DNA from: an uncultured Erysipelotrichaceae bacterium
GTDB taxonomy: Bacteria; Bacillota_I; Bacilli_A; Erysipelotrichales; Erysipelotrichaceae
Direction of reading: 5' to 3'
Length of the DNA stretch: 5,974 nucleotides
Assembly: GCA_964457525.1 (NCBI GenBank)
Contig: CAYWGS010000078.1
Location: 1-5,974 of the forward strand
Part shown: in pieces, positions 20 through 5,974 of the stretch
Layout: each line of letters begins with the position of its first letter
How positions within the stretch are numbered: the stretch's first letter is position 1
Translations under genes and position numbers: made by a program
Notes under the pieces: model-generated
Databases searched by the model: none
What the model saw: the letters and a program-made list of their open reading frames with translations, nothing else
What the model was told of the DNA's origin: nothing

Positions 20-58
20 GATATTAGTTAACATTATTAAATAAAAAAAGGAGAGATT

Positions 59-691
59 ATGCGTTTATTCGATGAATTCTATCAAGCATTTGAAAATTTA
101 GAACAAGAAAAATGTATAGATTTAGTCAGTAATGCACTTAAGAATCAAGAGATTACAATCACTGATTTGTATGAGAATGTGTTACGAAAATCCATGTCGC
201 ATTTAACAGATGTAGAAACAGATGTTAATCATAAAATATGGAAAGAACATATCCAATCGGGTATTGTTCGCAGTGTGATTGAAATGGCATATCCGTATGT
301 GTTAAACAATCGTTCAAGTAAGTCAATTAAGAGAGCTGCTGTTATTTGCCCTGATGGGGAGCAACATGAACTTGGGGCTCGTATGGTAAGTGATTATATT
401 AGAATGATGGGTTTTGAAACATTTTTTGTTGGTCGTGATACACCACGAAAAGAATTGTATGATTTGATAAATACACTCAAATTGGATTTAATTGCGATCA
501 GTGTTACCAATTATTACAATATTTCAAAGGCGATTCAAATGGTTTCTTTTATTGAGTCTAACTTTCCATCTATTAAGTTAATTGTTGGTGGTAAAGGCTT
601 TGAAATGAATCCACATTTATTCGATGAAAATAGTGTTCATATTACACACAGTTATGAAGATATTAAGAAAGTGTTGGGAGAATTAGTATGA
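59..691 (+). CDS. Standalone cobalamin (B12)-binding domain protein: helical cap plus Rossmann-type B12-binding domain, CarH/AerR/corrinoid-protein-like module, no output domain
   Basis: 210-codon ORF with ATG at 59 preceded by AAAGGAGAG (47-55). The C-terminal half reads AVICPDGEQHELGARMVSDYIRMMGFETFFVG...LIAISVT...IKLIVGGKG. This gives E101-x-H103-x-x-G106, then 41 residues to S148-x-T150, then 26 residues to G177-G178 (hand counted). That fits the E/DxHxxG-(41)-SxV/T-(22-27)-GG base-off/His-on cobalamin signature known from MetH, corrinoid proteins and CarH. The N-terminal ~90 aa looks helical (B12-binding_2-like cap) and contains W61-K-E63-H64. There is no signal peptide, TM segment or DNA-binding domain. 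Confidence 0.85.
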   Translation: MRLFDEFYQAFENLEQEKCIDLVSNALKNQEITITDLYENVLRKSMSHLTDVETDVNHKIWKEHIQSGIVRSVIEMAYPYVLNNRSSKSIKRAAVICPDGEQHELGARMVSDYIRMMGFETFFVGRDTPRKELYDLINTLKLDLIAISVTNYYNISKAIQMVSFIESNFPSIKLIVGGKGFEMNPHLFDENSVHITHSYEDIKKVLGELV

Positions 692-1821
692 AATTTGCCT
701 TTTCAGTTGCGAAAAGATTTCTAGGATACAACAAAGGACAAACCCTAATGATTATGATTGGGATTGCGATTGGGGTATCTGTCCAAATATTTATTGGTTT
801 ATTAATTTCTGGTCTTCAAGAAAGTTTAATTGATAAGACAGTTGGTAGTACACCACATATTACAATTACTCAAGAAGAAGATTTAAGTTTTGGTGATTTT
901 GAAATTAAAAATGATGAATTTACAGCGGTTGCATATCAAGCGGAAGGTCCTGCATTTGCGATCACAGAAGATGATGATGCGTCTATTTTATTAAGAGGTC
1001 TCAGTGCTGAAGGTGATCAACTATATAAACTCAGTGAAAAAATAGTGGATGGTAAAATGCCTTCACAAAAGAATGATGTTATTGTGGGATTAGGGTTAAA
1101 GGAAAAATTGAATTTAAAGGTTAATGACACATTGACTTTAAGAACAATTAACAATCAAACTGTGGATGTTAAAGTGGTTGGAATTGTAGATTTAAAAGTT
1201 GATTCGATTAATAACTCATGGGTTTTATCGACACTACCGACTGCTCAAGGTTTATTTGAAATGGATGATAAAATTACATCCATTGCGATTCAAGTTAAAG
1301 ATGTCTTTACAGCAGATACATTAGCTGAAGAACTTAAAGCTGACATGCCAGTTACTGACTTGGAAGTTGTTAACTGGAAAGAACAGAATGAAGATTTATT
1401 AAGTGGTTTAAATGGTCAAAGTATTTCGAGTATTATGATTCAAGTGTTTGTATTGGTTTCTGTTGTGCTTGGTATTGCGAGTGTTCTTGCGATAACAGTT
1501 CTTCAAAAATCTAAACAAATTGGTATCTTAAAAGCGATGGGAATTCCTGATAATACTGCAAGTCAAATATTCTTATTCCAAGGATTAATCTTAGGATTCT
1601 ATGGTGCTATTCTTGGTGTACTCTTTGGATTAGGTTTAATACTAGCGTTTACGACATTTGCTCGTAATCCAGATGGATCTGCGTTGATCCCAATTAATTA
1701 TGATATTCCGTTTATTTTATTCTCAGGATCAGTAGCGATTCTATCTGCTTTAATCGCATCATTTATTCCTGCGGCTCGTTCTAAGAAGTTAAGCCCTATG
1801 GAGGTTATTCGAAATGGATAA
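688..1821 (+). CDS. ABC transporter permease, MacB/LolCE/FtsX family (type VII ABC fold), 4 TM with ~200-aa extracytoplasmic domain
   Basis: 377-codon ORF. ATG 688 overlaps the upstream stop (ATGA, 688-691), and GGGAG lies at 676-680. One N-terminal TM (LMIMIGIAIGVSVQIFIGLLISG) is followed by a hydrophilic domain at aa ~45-245 (MacB periplasmic-core-like). Three C-terminal TMs follow, with the FtsX-domain hallmark region NWKEQNEDLLSGLNGQSISSIMIQVFVLVSVVLGIASVLAITVLQKSKQIGILKAMGIPDNTASQIFLFQGLILG. Confidence 0.9.
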   Translation: MKFAFSVAKRFLGYNKGQTLMIMIGIAIGVSVQIFIGLLISGLQESLIDKTVGSTPHITITQEEDLSFGDFEIKNDEFTAVAYQAEGPAFAITEDDDASILLRGLSAEGDQLYKLSEKIVDGKMPSQKNDVIVGLGLKEKLNLKVNDTLTLRTINNQTVDVKVVGIVDLKVDSINNSWVLSTLPTAQGLFEMDDKITSIAIQVKDVFTADTLAEELKADMPVTDLEVVNWKEQNEDLLSGLNGQSISSIMIQVFVLVSVVLGIASVLAITVLQKSKQIGILKAMGIPDNTASQIFLFQGLILGFYGAILGVLFGLGLILAFTTFARNPDGSALIPINYDIPFILFSGSVAILSALIASFIPAARSKKLSPMEVIRNG

Positions 1822-2509
1822 TATTGTAGAACTAAAAGAAATAACAAAAATTTATGGTGATAAAGTTAAAACTCAAGTCCTTCATGGATTAAATCTATCA
1901 ATTGAAAAGGGAAGCTTTAACTCAATTATTGGACAATCTGGAAGTGGTAAGAGTACATTACTTAATATTTTAGGAACCTTAGATCGTCCCTCTGGTGGAG
2001 AAATCATTATCAATGGTGTTAACACAAAGGCGATGAGTTCGAATCAATTAGCTAAGTTAAGAAATGAAACATTAGGCTTTATCTTCCAATTTCACTTTTT
2101 ACTCCCTGAATTTACAGCATTAGAAAATGTATTAATGCCTTACCGTATCATGGGGAAAAAGATTGATGATAAAGTAATGGAACGTGCAAATGAGCTTATT
2201 GAACTTGTTGGTTTAACTAAGGTTAAAAACAATTTAGCGACTCAAATGTCTGGTGGTCAACAACAACGTACTGCAATTGCTCGTTCACTTATGAATAATC
2301 CGAGTATTATTCTTGCGGATGAACCTACAGGTAACTTAGATTCTGATACAACTGAACAAATCTATGATTTAATGCGTAAGATTAATAAGAAGTATAATAC
2401 GACATTCATTATTATCACACATGATCAACACGTGGCTGAAAAGACAGATCGTATCATTGAAATTAAAGATGGACGAATTGTAATGGATGTTAAGCGTGTA
2501 AATGAATAA
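1814..2509 (+). CDS. ABC transporter ATP-binding protein, MacB/LolD/FtsE-like subfamily
   Basis: 231-codon ORF. ATG 1814 overlaps the permease stop by 8 nt (ATGGATAA), and GGAGG lies at 1800-1804. Motifs present: Walker A GQSGSGKST (nt 1931-1957), Q-loop FQFHFLLPEFTALENV, signature MSGGQQQR, Walker B/D-loop [13 protein letters not shown]-loop ITHD. All catalytic motifs are intact. Confidence 0.95.
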   Translation: MDNIVELKEITKIYGDKVKTQVLHGLNLSIEKGSFNSIIGQSGSGKSTLLNILGTLDRPSGGEIIINGVNTKAMSSNQLAKLRNETLGFIFQFHFLLPEFTALENVLMPYRIMGKKIDDKVMERANELIELVGLTKVKNNLATQMSGGQQQRTAIARSLMNNPSIILADEPTGNLDSDTTEQIYDLMRKINKKYNTTFIIITHDQHVAEKTDRIIEIKDGRIVMDVKRVNE

Positions 2510-2537
2510 TATCTTCCATTTGGAAGATATTTTTTTA
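2509..2537 (+). terminator. Rho-independent terminator ending the first transcription unit
   Basis: Perfect inverted repeat ATATCTTCCA (2509-2518) / TGGAAGATAT (2521-2530). Realistically this forms a 9-bp stem with a 4-nt loop. A T-tract (2531-2536) follows immediately, and the structure starts at the last base of the stop codon of the ATPase gene. Confidence 0.8.
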
Positions 2538-2538
2538 T

Positions 2539-2592
2539 CTTAATCTAAGATTAATATTAACTGTGTTACACTAAGACTGTAATTAATCATAT
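2539..2592 (+). promoter_or_regulatory. Intergenic region expected to carry the promoter of the second unit; only weak sigma-A-like elements are visible
   Basis: The region lies between the terminator and the RBS AGGAGG (2593-2598). The best -10-like hexamers are TAATAT (2552-2557, 4/6) and TGTAAT (2578-2583, 5/6). Neither has a convincing -35 at 16-18 nt spacing. GTTACA (2565-2570) is -35-like, but its cognate -10 would overlap the RBS. Confidence 0.25.
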
Positions 2593-2605: not shown

Positions 2606-4033
2606 ATGAATTTTCTTAAACGAGCATTTCTAAGCTTATCAAGACGAAAAGGTAAATCACTCATACTTTTAGTTATTATTTTTATTTTGAGTAATGTTAT
2701 GGCAGGGTCCATTGCGATTGGACAAGCTTCTAATAATGTCGAAAAGACAATTAAATTACAATTAGGTGCAAATGCGAGTGTTGAACTTGATTGGGAGAAA
2801 ATGCAGGATTGGACTGAAGAACAATGGAACTCATTACAATATGTCACTCCAGAAATGGCAGATAAGATTGGTTCATTGTCTTACGTTAAGTATTATGACT
2901 ATAGTTCAGAGTCCTATATTAATTCTACAACTCTAACTCAATATGATCCTAATATGGTTGAGGTTCCTACGATGAGCTATTTCCCATTAAAGGGTGTTCA
3001 ATATGCGCCAATAATGGATATTGCGAATGGTAGTGCAACTTTAGTTGAAGGACGTACTTTTGATGAGAACGAGATAACAAATGCGGATTATGTTGCATTA
3101 ATCTCGGATAAAGTAGCCGAAATTAACAATGTGTTTGTTGGTGATGTCATTTATCTTCAAAATACATTCACAATTTGGAAAGATGACAATACAACAGAAG
3201 AAATCAAACGTGATATCGCTCTAGAAATTATCGGTATCTTTACACCTAAAGTTGAACAAAATGAAGAAAATAATGGTGGTTGGATTGATTATACGCCATT
3301 CAATCGTATCTATGTTCCTAATGGTGTAGTTCATGCGGAAAATCGTTGGATGAATGAACAGTATGCGGCTGCATATCCAGATTCAAATTTTCAAATTGAT
3401 CAAATTTATATTACTCCAACATTTGTTTTGAATAATCCAGAAGATGTTGAAAGTTTCAGAACTGAAGCAAAGGGTTTATTACCTGATTATTATAAAGTTA
3501 CTGTTTCTAGTGATGCATATGATTCAGTTGCTGGCCCAATTAAGTTTATTGGTTCTCTATCAAATATCATTCTTTATGTGGCAATTGGTGCTACGATCTT
3601 AATCCTAAGTTTAGTTGTAATTCTATTCTTGCGTGATCGTAAGCATGAGTTAGGTATCTATTTATCGCTCGGTGAAAGTAAAGCTAAAGTTGTTGGTCAA
3701 ATCTTGATTGAAGTTGTAACAATTGCTTTAATTGCGATTACATTATCGCTCTTGACGGGTAATTCAATTGCTGAATCTACGTCTCAATCAATGATTGATT
3801 TAAGAAATGAAATTGCTGGTACGAATGATGATAATGGAATTGTGTATCGCAATATGGGTTACTATCCAGGTAATGGTGTAACTGAAGATGATGTAATGGA
3901 AGCATATAAAATTGAATTTTCTTGGGACTATGTAATTATTCTTTATGGTGTAGGTCTTGGCACAGTGTTACTATCTAGTATCGCTCCAATGGTTTATATC
4001 TTAAGATTGAAACCTAAGAAGATCATGATGTAG
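2606..4033 (+). CDS. ABC transporter permease, MacB/FtsX family, with enlarged (~275 aa) extracytoplasmic domain and a long TM3-TM4 loop
   Basis: 475-codon ORF with AGGAGG at 2593-2598, 7 nt before the ATG. TM1 is aa ~18-39 (LILLVIIFILSNVMAGSIAIG) and the hydrophilic domain is aa ~40-315. TM2 is aa ~316-342 (SNIILYVAIGATILILSLVVILFL), followed by the FtsX-type cytoplasmic turn RDRKHELGIYLSLGESKAKV. TM3 is aa ~361-385, a ~55-aa hydrophilic loop spans aa 386-440, and TM4 is aa ~441-466. Confidence 0.9.
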   Translation: MNFLKRAFLSLSRRKGKSLILLVIIFILSNVMAGSIAIGQASNNVEKTIKLQLGANASVELDWEKMQDWTEEQWNSLQYVTPEMADKIGSLSYVKYYDYSSESYINSTTLTQYDPNMVEVPTMSYFPLKGVQYAPIMDIANGSATLVEGRTFDENEITNADYVALISDKVAEINNVFVGDVIYLQNTFTIWKDDNTTEEIKRDIALEIIGIFTPKVEQNEENNGGWIDYTPFNRIYVPNGVVHAENRWMNEQYAAAYPDSNFQIDQIYITPTFVLNNPEDVESFRTEAKGLLPDYYKVTVSSDAYDSVAGPIKFIGSLSNIILYVAIGATILILSLVVILFLRDRKHELGIYLSLGESKAKVVGQILIEVVTIALIAITLSLLTGNSIAESTSQSMIDLRNEIAGTNDDNGIVYRNMGYYPGNGVTEDDVMEAYKIEFSWDYVIILYGVGLGTVLLSSIAPMVYILRLKPKKIMM

Positions 4034-4044
4034 GAGGTAAACCC

Positions 4045-4719
4045 ATGGCAATTCTAAAAGCAAATAATTTAAAATACTATTATCAAGATGGTGAAAATAT
4101 TCGTACAATTTTGAAGGATTTAAGCATTGAGTTTGAAAAAGGGAAATTCTATACCATCTTAGGACCTTCTGGTAGTGGTAAGACTACGTTATTATCTCTG
4201 TTAGCAGCACTTGATGAACCTAAAGAAGGAAAGATCTTATATAACGATCAAGATATTAAAGCAATTGGTTATGAAAAATATCGTAGAAATATGGTAAGTA
4301 TCGTTTTCCAAAGCTACAATCTTGTTCCATATATGACAGCTGTTGAGAATGTAATGATTCCTATGGCAATTACTGAGAATGAAATTCCGAAGAATACTAA
4401 AGAAGTTGCATATAATTTATTAGATTATATTGGAATTACTAAATCTAAAGCAGATCGTATTGTAAATAAACTATCGGGTGGTGAGCAACAACGTGTTGCG
4501 ATTGCTCGTTCACTAGCAAGTAACGTTGATATTATTTTCGCAGATGAACCTACAGGTAACTTAGATTCTGAATTAGAAGATGAAATCATTGAGATTTTTA
4601 AGACCTTAGCACATGAGCATAACAAATGTATTATTATGGTTACTCACTCTAAGGAAATTGCTGATAAGTCTGATGTTTCATATCAGTTGAAAAAAGGAGT
4701 GTTATTGCAAAATGAGTGA
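4045..4719 (+). CDS. ABC transporter ATP-binding protein, MacB/LolD/FtsE-like subfamily (paralog of 1814-2509)
   Basis: 224-codon ORF. AGGAGG (4032-4037) overlaps the permease stop codon. Motifs present: Walker [11 protein letters not shown]-loop [16 protein letters not shown], signature LSGGEQQR, Walker B/D-loop [13 protein letters not shown]-loop VTHS. Confidence 0.95.
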
Positions 4720-5974
4720 CTTCTTAAATAAGTTTTCTAAAAAAGATTACAAAAGTGAATCTCAAGAGAAACCAAAATCGATCGAAACGCCAAAAGAAGA
4801 AGTGAAGACAGTTGAATCAAAACCTGTCGAAACTGTAAAACCAACTCCTGTTGTTTCTACTTCACGTCACGAGGAAGAAGTACATATTGATCCTAGCTAT
4901 CGTAGGAACCAAAGAAATAAGATAATTATTGGTGCTGTTGCGATTGTCGCATTGCTTGCCTTATCATTTGGAGTTTACTACTTGCTTAATCAAGTTCAAA
5001 TTCCTGATTATGTAAATAAACCATTATCAGAATTAAAAACATGGGCATCTAGAAATAATATTGCTTTAGAAACAGAGTATCAATTCAATTTAGAAGTAAA
5101 TAAAGACTATATTATTGATTTAAATCCTGTCGCGAACTCAAATATTCAGAAGGGTTCTATCCTAAAAGTTATTGTTAGTGATGGTGCGGACCCTGATGAA
5201 CAGATTCAAGTTCCTGATTTTACCGGTAATACTTATTATCAAATTCAAGAATGGTTAAGTACGAACAAGATAAATAATTTGCGTATTACTTACGAAAACA
5301 ATGAAGATATTCCAGTGAATGAATTTGTTCGTATCGTATTCAATGATAAGACGATTACAAGTGATTCTTATACACGTAAAGATTATGGCTTAATCTATTT
5401 GTCTAATGGTCCTGTTGTATATGAAAAGAATATTAAAGTACCAAATTGGACAACTGCTGCGACAAGTGTAGTAAGTGCTCAAGCTTGGGGATTAGAACAA
5501 GATGTAGAGGTAATTGTAAATTTAGTTAATTCTACATCAGTACCTAAAGATATTATTATCTCTCAAAGTATTGCTCCAGATACAATGATTGCGAAGAAGA
5601 GTAAGATTACGATTACTGTTTCTCTTGGTCAAATTGTCACAGTTCCTGATTTCTCTAAGATGTCGAAAGAAGAAGCTGAAAACACATCCTTAAGTAATGC
5701 GGTTGTTAAGTATGTTGAAATGTATCAACCAAAAACAGGTGCTACTTATGGCTCATATATCTGGCAAGATGTAAAAGCTGGAACAAATATCGATCAAAGT
5801 AGTGCAACTAAATTGGTTATTACAGTCTATTACTCATTGGGTCAACCATATTTGAGTTCAATGGTAGGTCATTCTGAAGCTGAAATTCCAACATTTATAT
5901 ATGATCAAAATCTAAAGAGTGCAAATTTTACTTTTGAAGTACAAGCTTCAACCATTAATGAGGCTCCTAAAGGT
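4712..5974 (+). CDS. Bitopic membrane protein with tandem extracellular PASTA-like domains (3' end beyond window); no kinase or transpeptidase domain upstream of the repeats
   Basis: This ORF is not in the supplied track because it has no stop inside the window. Hand translation from ATG 4712 gives 421 sense codons with no stop up to 5974. The frame opens after TGA at 4688-4690, and 4712 is the first start codon in it. AAGGAG lies at 4694-4699, and the ATG overlaps the ATPase stop by 8 nt (ATGAGTGA). The protein starts [73 protein letters not shown] helix IIIGAVAIVALLALSFGVYYLL follows, then repeats of ~65-70 aa, each opening with (I/V)-x-(I/V)-P-(D/N)-(Y/F/W) and closing with hydrophobic-x-V-S-x-G. 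Confidence 0.85.
   Translation, partial: MSDFLNKFSKKDYKSESQEKPKSIETPKEEVKTVESKPVETVKPTPVVSTSRHEEEVHIDPSYRRNQRNKIIIGAVAIVALLALSFGVYYLLNQVQIPDYVNKPLSELKTWASRNNIALETEYQFNLEVNKDYIIDLNPVANSNIQKGSILKVIVSDGADPDEQIQVPDFTGNTYYQIQEWLSTNKINNLRITYENNEDIPVNEFVRIVFNDKTITSDSYTRKDYGLIYLSNGPVVYEKNIKVPNWTTAATSVVSAQAWGLEQDVEVIVNLVNSTSVPKDIIISQSIAPDTMIAKKSKITITVSLGQIVTVPDFSKMSKEEAENTSLSNAVVKYVEMYQPKTGATYGSYIWQDVKAGTNIDQSSATKLVITVYYSLGQPYLSSMVGHSEAEIPTFIYDQNLKSANFTFEVQASTINEAPKG
4994..5974 (+). repeat. Tandem array of at least 5 PASTA-like protein modules (protein-level repeats, diverged at DNA level)
   Basis: Module boundaries from hand translation are as follows. Module 1, aa 95-157 (nt 4994-5182): VQIPDY...IIDLNPVANSNIQKGSILKVIVSDG. 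Module 2, aa 165-233 (5204-5410): IQVPDF...LIYLSNG. Module 3, aa 241-306 (5432-5629): IKVPNW...IIISQSIAPDTMIAKKSKITITVSLG. Module 4, aa 308-376 (5633-5839): IVTVPDF...KLVITVYYSLG. Module 5, aa 379-421 (5846-5974) is truncated by the window. The pattern v-x-vPd-x-G...vi-x-Q-x-P-x-x-G...v-x-l-x-vS-x-G is the PASTA consensus. The recurring TTCCTGATT (VPD/IPD) at 4997, 5210 and 5642 marks module starts at DNA level. Confidence 0.7.

Follow-up and report, generated by a model that had tools for sequence, protein, structure and literature searches.

A standalone cobalamin-binding protein encoded with a type VII ABC transporter in bacteria and archaea, and its possible role as a light-responsive sensor subunit

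The window, a stretch of 5,974 nucleotides (nt) of contig CAYWGS010000078.1 from an uncultured Erysipelotrichaceae bacterium, holds six co-oriented genes, and the first three (open reading frames ORF1 to ORF3; Table 1) encode a soluble cobalamin (B12)-binding module, an FtsX-type permease and an ABC-class (ATP-binding cassette) ATPase. We found that this pairing of a B12 module with an ABC transporter is universal for the ORF1 subfamily and is not a quirk of the window's genome. The parts are all of known kinds; the combination of a B12 module with a type VII ABC transporter is new, widespread and present in two domains of life. Full-text literature searches returned no description of a B12 module paired with an FtsX, MacB or Lol system. 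We tentatively favor the reading, which in our judgment falls a little short of an even chance, that ORF1 is a cobalamin sensor subunit, probably light-responsive, that gates a LolDF-like type VII ABC machine.

Conservation of the three-gene linkage

The linkage was assessed in two sets of loci. The genome set came from a pattern scan in which a single genome represented each species and which identified 404 genomes with a relative, and 80 loci were fetched; the metagenome set came from a separate contig scan seeded from a clostridial member, which identified 553 relatives, and 80 contigs were fetched (individual loci and contigs are designated below by L numbers). All counts cover the loci or contigs with enough downstream DNA. 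An ORF2 orthologue lay no more than 15 nt from the B12 gene in every genome-set locus (78/78), with a 4-nt overlap in 34, and an ORF3 orthologue followed within 20 nt of the permease gene in 72 of 73 loci, 62 of the 73 having the 8-nt overlap. Identities ranged from 41 to 88% for the ORF2 orthologues and from 57 to 92% for the ORF3 orthologues. The metagenome set gave the same result, with the permease directly downstream of the B12 gene in 71/71 contigs and the ATPase present in all 47 that had room for it. In the reverse direction, loci picked via ORF2 homologues rather than ORF1 had the B12 gene upstream in three of three cases; the lists of ORF2 homologues covered the B12-linked family throughout. 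Clustering of the neighboring genes indicated that only the B12, permease and ATPase genes are common to all loci, the rest being clade-specific. The initial annotation of this DNA had considered that such proteins might normally adjoin methyltransferases of the MtaB/MtbA type, with the ABC linkage unique to this genome; instead, no such methyltransferases are among the recurrent neighbor families of the orthologues and the FtsX permease follows directly across genera.

The cassette was found in Erysipelotrichaceae, Carnobacteriaceae/Atopostipes, many Clostridia, Acholeplasma, Izemoplasmatales, Dehalococcoidia, Kosmotogaceae and five archaeal metagenome-assembled genomes (MAGs), with the usual caveat that attaches to MAG taxonomy in host assignments. 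The archaeal MAGs are from Promethearchaeota (two), Methanomassiliicoccales, Thermoplasmata and Methanobacteriota, and contigs of 367 and 793 kb carry two of their copies. Each of the three archaeal proteins has its nearest relatives among clostridial or Dehalococcoidia copies, a pattern of similarity that fits transfer of the cassette as one unit across phyla and into archaea. A tblastn search of plasmid records found no member of the family: the cobalamin proteins that it returned were all distant, with at most 29% identity.

ORF1 homologues are standalone proteins of approximately 210 amino acids (aa), down to approximately 32% identity. A profile search of 1.84 billion representatives gave 1,303 matches at E ≤ 1e-30, and the standalone type, recognizable by an 'IWxEH' motif in its helical cap, accounted for at least 67 clusters among the top 150 of these 1,303. 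The long matches in the top 150 were kinase, GGDEF and N-terminally extended forms. The next-nearest proteins to the IWxEH subfamily are modules of approximately 350 aa with a Wx9EH motif, some of them fused to HisKA/HATPase (histidine kinase) domains or to a bilin-type domain and GGDEF. Cobalamin-binding proteins of the out-group, which have the canonical Wx9EH, were found in other contexts, beside an alpha-amylase gene or a PAS-GGDEF-EAL gene. One such out-group family (L088 3455-6720), of approximately 350 aa with an N-terminal extension of about 140 aa and the canonical Wx9EH, is very numerous among the representatives; in L088 the last base of its gene is the first base of the PAS-GGDEF-EAL gene. 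Public labels for the ORF1 homologues are generic or wrong, for example 'methanogenic corrinoid protein MtbC1' at JGI or 'MerR family light-induced regulator'.

The cobalamin-binding protein and its transporter

The cobalamin-binding domain of ORF1 scored above the Pfam cut-off (PF02310, 8e-13), and the helical cap scored below it (PF02607, 0.0042, 17.7 bits versus a cut-off of 23). Weak in Pfam, the cap is nevertheless confirmed by the AlphaFold2 model, which predicts a helical bundle at residues 2-83 followed by a Rossmann domain (predicted local distance difference test, pLDDT, 89.5; predicted template modeling score, pTM, 0.86), and by PDB profile matches that span residues 6-208. Hydropathy indicated no transmembrane segment in ORF1 or ORF3. 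ORF2 matched PF12704 (MacB_PCD, 1e-14) and PF02687 (FtsX, 1.4e-14) and ORF3 matched PF00005 (ABC_tran, 1.8e-32), all above cut-offs. The initial description of a soluble 210-aa protein made of a cap and a B12 Rossmann domain, joined by 4-nt and 8-nt overlaps to a permease with four transmembrane segments and its ATPase, thus agrees with reading frames, Pfam, hydropathy, model and PDB profiles; of the five Pfam families it had foreseen, only PF02607 stayed below threshold.

Among proteins of known structure, the profile of ORF1 matched photocobilins (4e-21) and the cobalamin-binding domain of CtMerR (1e-20) best, followed by MttC (7xcn, 3e-14), CarH (6e-8) and AerR (7te2, 1e-5). Foldseek comparison of the ORF1 model gave TM scores of 0.82-0.85 to photocobilin and CtMerR, 0.75 to CarH and 0.84 to the methylamine corrinoid protein MtmC (3ezx). 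By these measures ORF1 is closest to the B12 photoreceptor modules (PDB 5c8d, 8jbs and 8j2w for CarH, CtMerR and photocobilin), with which it shares the cap and Rossmann fold, a His-on loop of the form ExHExG, and the EH, GxxH and GxxxP elements. Unlike these photoreceptors, ORF1 has no fused output domain (MerR/HTH, bilin-binding or GGDEF), and its invariable partner is an ABC transporter, whereas that of the CarH/photocobilin class is DNA or an enzyme domain. ORF1 is not itself a CarH: its 210 aa include no helix-turn-helix (HTH), and the CarH model NF052513 gave 36 bits versus a cut-off of 400, with only the cobalamin-binding part aligned. Scores for methyltransferase corrinoid proteins were similarly far below their cut-offs (TIGR02370, 27 bits versus 215; MtbC, 27 bits versus 350). 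With AerR/PpaA, ORF1 has in common that it is a standalone cobalamin-binding module, and it would be expected to act through protein-protein contacts with a co-encoded partner. The sequence similarity to AerR is weak, however, the partner is not CrtJ/PpsR, for which no gene lies nearby, no transcription factor is conserved next to ORF1, and AerR/PpaA belong to purple bacteria, whereas ORF1 is found in anaerobic Bacillota, Chloroflexota and archaea. The original label of a CarH/AerR-type module consequently survives for the EH, GxxH and GxxxP elements, and fails for GxxW and for the likeness to AerR.

The corrinoid-binding residues of ORF1 are intact, most being conserved in at least 97% of 68 orthologues (Table 1), and ORF1 is predicted to bind a corrinoid. 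Light-responsive cobalamin-binding domains have been described by a signature of four elements, GxxW, EH, GxxH and GxxxP (Yu et al. 2024, PMC11796333). ORF1 holds three of the four, namely EH (E63 H64), GxxH (G100-E-Q-H103) and GxxxP (G125..P129), each with a conservation of at least 97%, and E63-H64 align to E166-H167 of CtMerR; in TtCarH the EH motif is E141 H142, which contacts the adenosyl group. The entire subfamily lacks the tryptophan of GxxW and has acidic residues there instead; the missing residue is replaced by an invariant tryptophan two residues before EH (W61 of 'IWxEH'). In CtMerR (PDB 8jbs), a validated photoreceptor that has the canonical tryptophan as well, the cap motif of ORF1 aligns to 'IWEEH'. 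In CarH and CtMerR the canonical tryptophan packs on adenosylcobalamin from the neighboring protomer. Without this residue the subfamily may have an altered form of the head-to-tail dimer of CarH, and with it an altered oligomeric switch. Because it lacks GxxW, the subfamily would fall outside the four-element signature with which Yu et al. mined databases (PMC11796333).

The transporter has the features of a type VII (MacB/FtsX-fold) ABC system: a permease with four predicted transmembrane segments (approximately residues 22-40, 253-271, 300-318 and 342-360), a core domain in the loop of about 210 aa between the first two, and a separate ATPase of the MacB/LolD type. The best PDB chains for ORF2 were LolF (2e-19) and LolE (4e-17), ORF3 matched LolD at 1e-63, and the matches of the two proteins also include MacB. 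Scores against the lipoprotein-release families fell short of their cut-offs (TIGR02212 lolCE, 135 bits versus 362, for ORF2; TIGR02211 LolD, 275 bits versus 308, for ORF3), and the hosts are Bacillota, Mollicutes-like bacteria, Chloroflexota and archaea, so the pair does not belong to LolCDE/LolDF proper. Since there is a single permease gene, as in LolDF, a LolDF-like homodimer is implied. In the ORF2 orthologues, conservation is highest in the membrane helices and the stalk, where invariant Gln, Ser and Thr abound, and lower in the extracytoplasmic domain. The hosts are monoderm, wall-less or archaeal; as they lack an outer membrane, and some lack a cell wall, neither classical lipoprotein release nor peptidoglycan remodeling is expected of the transporter, and no LolA/LolB or MacA/TolC genes were among the recurrent neighbor families. 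What sets the cassette apart from LolDF, LolCDE and MacB, besides its sub-equivalog scores, is the dedicated cytoplasmic cobalamin protein. The heme efflux system HrtRBA has the gene order sensor, permease, ATPase and a MacB-type transporter that handles a tetrapyrrole, and an analogy with it had been drawn in the initial annotation. The gene order does agree, but the transporter is LolF/LolE- and LolD-like, a PDB sequence search with ORF2 gave no HrtB chain at E ≤ 1e-3, and HrtR is a TetR-family DNA-binding repressor and not a transporter subunit, unlike the role we propose for ORF1.

Light-related neighbors and genomic surroundings

Pfam scans of the neighbors covered 129 first and 115 second neighbors (244 in all) and the 25 commonest families per scan. 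Genes connected with light or ultraviolet (UV) damage were the most recurrent neighbors of the cassette, occurring beside it in approximately 17 of the 80 genome loci in arrangements that differ between families. As a rough estimate rather than a formal null, which assumes at most two photolyase/UvdE genes per genome of approximately 2.5 Mb, about 1% of random 16-kb intervals, or one locus in 80, would be expected to contain such genes by chance. UvdE, mostly as a UvdE-DUF1722 fusion, was encoded within 5 kb of the cassette in nine loci and photolyase in five. In six Carnobacteriaceae/Atopostipes loci (L020 2008-8757, and L021, L026, L027, L029 and L037) the three genes form part of one seven-gene operon, crtN-crtM-tetR-[B12-FtsX-ABC]-uvdE, which encodes a crtN-like desaturase, a crtM-like synthase and the UvdE-DUF1722 fusion. 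In L058 a YbgA-like DUF523/DUF1722 gene comes directly after the ATPase gene, with photolyase next. In L060 a CarH-like regulator is divergent from a run of genes for B12 module, FtsX permease, ABC ATPase, photolyase, DUF2177, a FakA/DegV protein and DUF1295; this regulator (L060 6959-7834, - strand; 291 aa) combines an XRE-type HTH_3 domain with a cap and a B12-binding module, its DNA-binding domain being non-MerR. Photolyase, carotenoid genes and a CarH-like regulator are also the genomic company of CarH-type photoreceptors. A protein similar to the L060 regulator, of 284 aa and with a cobalamin-binding domain, is encoded at L128 3071-3925 (- strand).

A trio of genes for DUF1295, DUF2177 and a FakA-DegV fusion also recurs (L169 4192-13152, L170, L022 4673-7975 and L060 11880-14927), together with photolyase in L169 and L170, which are from relatives of the window's lineage, and by itself in L022. 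The FakA-DegV fusion joins a fatty-acid kinase to its binding protein. DUF2177, DegV and DUF1295 are characteristic neighbors of heliorhodopsin in Firmicutes and Chloroflexi; the same study names cobalamin-binding proteins and ABC transporters among the neighbors of heliorhodopsin and proposes a light-linked remodeling of membrane lipids (bioRxiv 10.1101/2021.02.16.431466). Genes for DUF2177 and DUF1295 are induced during acclimation of Chlamydomonas to singlet oxygen (PMC4067076). Heliorhodopsin neighborhoods and the cassette loci thus have DUF2177, DegV, DUF1295 and photolyase in common. A BLAST of the fetched loci with an approximate heliorhodopsin sequence, a weak test, gave no match. The initial annotation knew of no characterised B12-module/type VII pairing, and none was found in the literature, yet control of an ABC transporter by a photoreceptor does have one precedent: heliorhodopsin shares an operon with the ABC exporter OmrDE, to which it binds and which it up-regulates in the light (Cho et al. 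2024, PMC11109279). In both cases receptor and transporter genes are coupled, and for ORF1 it is this genetic coupling that is shown. Heliorhodopsin is a membrane retinal protein and OmrDE a heterodimeric multidrug exporter, whereas ORF1 is a soluble B12 protein and ORF2/ORF3 a type VII mechanotransmitter.

No match to a cobalamin riboswitch was found at the Rfam gathering threshold in 19 diverse loci (291 kb, both strands), and the cassette is accordingly not a riboswitch-controlled B12 transport operon. Among the recurrent families of the 244 first and second neighbors, there were no methyltransferase, cob, btu or substrate-binding-protein families, and the window's own context contains no methyltransferase and no DNA-binding protein. 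The absence of a methyltransferase, a DNA-binding domain and a B12 riboswitch, first noted from the window itself, therefore holds with the upstream context and the Rfam scan included. The sole Rfam match was a RAGATH-18 RNA (L023 5764-5825, 63.7 bits), which lies approximately 90 nt upstream of a formate-tetrahydrofolate ligase gene and 2.2 kb upstream of the cassette. PAS-GGDEF-EAL or PAS-GGDEF-HD-GYP proteins adjoin the cassette in several clades (L034/L063 5378-7865; L046/L068, approximately 6100-8000; L053 6944-7846; L169 9614-11842); in four of these loci they are directly upstream. These neighbors hint at a link to cyclic di-GMP signaling.

Terminator-like hairpins flank the three genes of the window, which are thus a discrete transcription unit. 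One follows ORF3 directly (Table 1), its stem-loop being window 2508-2531, or L001 10762-10785 in a contig with an exact match; the second is just upstream of the window (L001 8208-8227). Further upstream, the exact-match contigs carry split transketolase genes, asnA and a gene for an MscS channel. Approximately 4 to 7.5 kb upstream (L001 823-4187) are two unusual ABC genes, whose products are a 441-aa protein with ABC_tran and FtsX matches and a 676-aa ABC_tran protein, and homologues of this pair recur upstream in other Erysipelotrichaceae loci. Downstream of ORF3, a second FtsX/ABC pair precedes a PASTA-repeat protein gene, and this second type VII unit occupies window 2606-5974. ORF4 (2606-4033) encodes a 475-aa FtsX/MacB_PCD permease, whose extracytoplasmic loop is longer, and ORF5 (4045-4719) an ATPase, which overlaps ORF6 (4712 to beyond 5974) by 8 nt; ORF6 is a 451-aa membrane protein of PASTA repeats that resembles the extracellular part of PknB/Stk1 without the kinase domain. 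The ORF4/ORF5 pair was considered as a part of the system and rejected as not core, since it is confined to Erysipelotrichaceae relatives. In the close relatives L007-L015, a 3.7-kb block that is absent from the window's genome separates the two ABC units (for example, L007 10578-14119). It was suspected of encoding photolyase or UvdE, and proved to be an irrelevant fructose-type phosphotransferase system operon (EIIA, DeoR, PfkB, EIIBC).

Table 1. Coordinates of the three-gene unit and its motifs in the window (5,974 nt)
Feature	Position	Strand	Basis or conservation
GGAG ribosome-binding site of ORF1	50-53	+	Sequence; the ATG at 59 follows after 5 nt
ORF1, soluble 210-aa cobalamin-binding module (helical cap + Rossmann domain), standalone 'IWxEH' subfamily	59-691	+	Reading frame, Pfam, model, PDB profiles
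Cap motif I60-W61-K62-E63-H64; E63-H64 is the 'EH' signature element	236-250	+	W61, E63 and H64 at least 97% conserved, 68 orthologues
E101-Q-H103-E-L-G106, predicted His-on lower-ligand loop (E/DxHxxG; GxxH = G100..H103)	359-376	+	E101, H103, E104 and G106 invariant
G125-R-D-T-P129, GxxxP signature element	431-445	+	G125, T128 and P129 at least 97% conserved
S148-V-T150-N151, SxL/T-type corrinoid-tail motif	500-511	+	S148 invariant
GG motif G177G178	587-592	+	G177 and G178 invariant
ATGA start/stop overlap of ORF1 and ORF2 (4 nt), ORF2 ATG inside ATGA; translational coupling	688-691	+	
ORF2, 377-aa FtsX-type permease with four transmembrane (TM) segments, MacB-type periplasmic core domain between TM1 and TM2	688-1821	+	
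GGAGG before the ORF3 start	1800-1804	+	Sequence
Overlap of ORF2 and ORF3 (8 nt)	1814-1821	+	
ORF3, 231-aa LolD/MacB-type ABC ATPase without extra regulatory domain	1814-2509	+	
Intrinsic-terminator-like hairpin AATATCTTCC-ATTT-GGAAGATATT plus T-run	2508-2539	+	Directly after the ORF3 stop

Proposed mechanism, alternatives and significance

We propose that ORF1, ORF2 and ORF3 may form a self-contained module, in which a cytoplasmic corrinoid sensor would be joined to a homodimeric machine of two ORF2 and two ORF3 chains. ORF1 would bind cobalamin in the base-off/His-on form via H103, and the bound cobalamin would most likely be adenosylcobalamin, because the E63-H64 pair, which is the adenosyl contact in CarH-type receptors, is conserved. 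Translational coupling would lead to ORF1 being made in a fixed ratio with the transporter, on whose cytoplasmic face it could dock, either at the ORF3 ATPase dimer or at the elbow and coupling helices of ORF2. The state of the cofactor would switch ATPase-driven mechanotransmission on or off, and the most likely change of state would be photolysis, by UV to green light, of the Co-C bond; corrinoid binding, contact with the transporter, the light signal and the direction in which ORF1 regulates are all steps that we infer. The output would be a photoprotective activity at the membrane or envelope, for which the genomic context offers two speculative kinds of substrate, damaged or remodeled membrane lipids and photosensitizing tetrapyrroles. 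A more specific version, which we regard as possible but distinctly doubtful, is that a soluble adenosylcobalamin photoreceptor serves as the detachable subunit of a light-gated LolDF-like extractor, spread horizontally through anaerobic bacteria into archaea, which removes or remodels photo-damaged lipids or photosensitizing tetrapyrroles within the same light-stress program as photolyase, UvdE and DUF2177/DegV/DUF1295.

Several observations weigh against a light-responsive sensor subunit. The light/UV neighbors are in a minority (approximately 21% of the genome set and one or two short metagenome contigs, such as L104), they are absent from the window's own locus and genome, and nearly all hosts are anaerobes or MAGs. 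ORF1 fails the four-element light signature, in that T50-D-V-E53 aligns to the GxxW element at the end of the cap's third helix (TtCarH G128..W131), and dimers of the CarH type may not form. A fusion of a B12 module to an FtsX/permease or ABC/ATPase domain would have been proof of contact, and there was none in the top 150 of the 1,303 representatives; we also know of no cytoplasmic regulatory subunit in a type VII ABC system. In L060, moreover, the separate CarH-like regulator already provides light-dependent transcription, leaving ORF1 room for a role other than sensing.

Two of the alternatives keep a functional tie between the B12 protein and the transporter. One, which we consider unlikely, is corrinoid trafficking, in which the transporter imports, exports, extracts or detoxifies corrinoids and ORF1 is a cytosolic carrier for any cobamide in the base-off/His-on form. 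The corrinoid-binding site is complete and strictly conserved, as this would require, the hosts are rich in corrinoid-dependent anaerobes (Dehalococcoidia, Methanomassiliicoccales, Clostridia, Kosmotogaceae), and MacB-type systems can handle tetrapyrroles, HrtBA acting on heme and MacAB on protoporphyrin. Even the UV-gene context would fit, since adenosyl- and methylcobalamin are destroyed by light and a light-linked replacement or disposal of corrinoids is conceivable. B12 transporters in these phyla are typically under riboswitch control, however, and a cobalamin riboswitch was found in 0 of 19 loci; btu, cob and substrate-binding-protein families were likewise missing from the recurrent neighbor families, the resemblance of ORF2 is to LolF/LolE, with no HrtB chain at E ≤ 1e-3 in the PDB search, and the known type VII ABC structures have, to our knowledge, no transmembrane path from the cytoplasm. 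That W61, E63 and H64, which lie on the upper-ligand face, are strictly conserved also argues for a single cofactor form, as in a sensor, over a generic carrier. Of the two roles raised in the initial annotation, the regulatory cobalamin- or light-responsive subunit has thus gained support from relatives, fusions and neighbors, and corrinoid handling has been left without contextual support. The other alternative, less probable again, is a dark sensor, with ORF1 reporting cytoplasmic cobalamin availability or the cobalt oxidation state and gating the transporter without any role for light. It would be analogous to GlnK plugging AmtB and to the trans-inhibition of MetNI, it draws equally on the linkage and the sensor-class evidence, and it would suit hosts that are nearly all anaerobes or MAGs and the missing signature tryptophan, while the absence of riboswitches could mean post-translational control. 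It leaves unexplained the photolyase, UvdE, carotenoid, DUF2177/DegV/DUF1295 and CarH-like neighbors.

The remaining alternatives make the transporter a bystander. ORF1 could be an anti-repressor like AerR/PpaA that acts on transcription factors varying between lineages, with the transporter merely co-transcribed in the same regulon, which we judge improbable, slightly more so than a dark sensor. The standalone cobalamin-binding AerR works through such contacts and 7te2 does match the ORF1 profile; a tetR gene ends approximately 20 nt before the B12 gene in the six Carnobacteriaceae/Atopostipes crt-uvdE loci, and there are sporadic MarR, WYL and LysR regulators in the vicinity. No partner other than the permease and the ATPase is universal, with no conserved adjoining transcription factor, and the start/stop overlaps, present in nearly all loci from both domains of life, suggest that ORF1 and the transporter are produced together in stoichiometric amounts. 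AerR has an N-terminal histidine as upper ligand, furthermore, and the first histidine of ORF1 is H48, so that a histidine of this type is absent. It is highly improbable that ORF1 is simply a corrinoid protein for methyltransferases, like MtaC, MtbC or MttC, and a chance neighbor of an unrelated transporter. Some JGI labels for its homologues ('MtbC1') and the fit of its fold to MtmC and MttC would agree with this, but its NCBIfam scores are far under the cut-offs, its His loop is ExHExG as in photoreceptor modules and not DxHDxG, neither the recurrent families of the 244 neighbors nor the window's context includes the MT1/MT2 methyltransferase families, and the linkage to the transporter is universal. 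Gene context effectively refutes this reading.

A light-responsive sensor subunit would have several consequences. The cassette would add a new output class to B12 sensing, for which DNA binding, anti-repression, cyclic di-GMP enzymes, kinases and bilin domains are the known outputs, and we know of no earlier case of a type VII ABC mechanotransmitter with a cytoplasmic regulator under the control of a cofactor, which ORF1 would be. A small soluble switch that couples green light to an ATPase would also be useful as an optogenetic part. If the system moves corrinoids instead, organisms central to corrinoid cross-feeding would have a B12 transporter of a new kind. The cassette is experimentally approachable in cultured strains of Clostridium and Acetivibrio, its cultured carriers including Clostridium amylolyticum DSM 21864 (L064), C. 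punense DSM 28650 (L043) and Acetivibrio alkalicellulosi DSM 17461 (L055). It also offers a handle on the role of LolCDE-like transporters in hosts without an outer membrane, including archaea and wall-less bacteria, and ties in with the role of the heliorhodopsin-associated DUF2177/DegV/DUF1295 genes and with the response of strict anaerobes to light and photo-oxidative stress.

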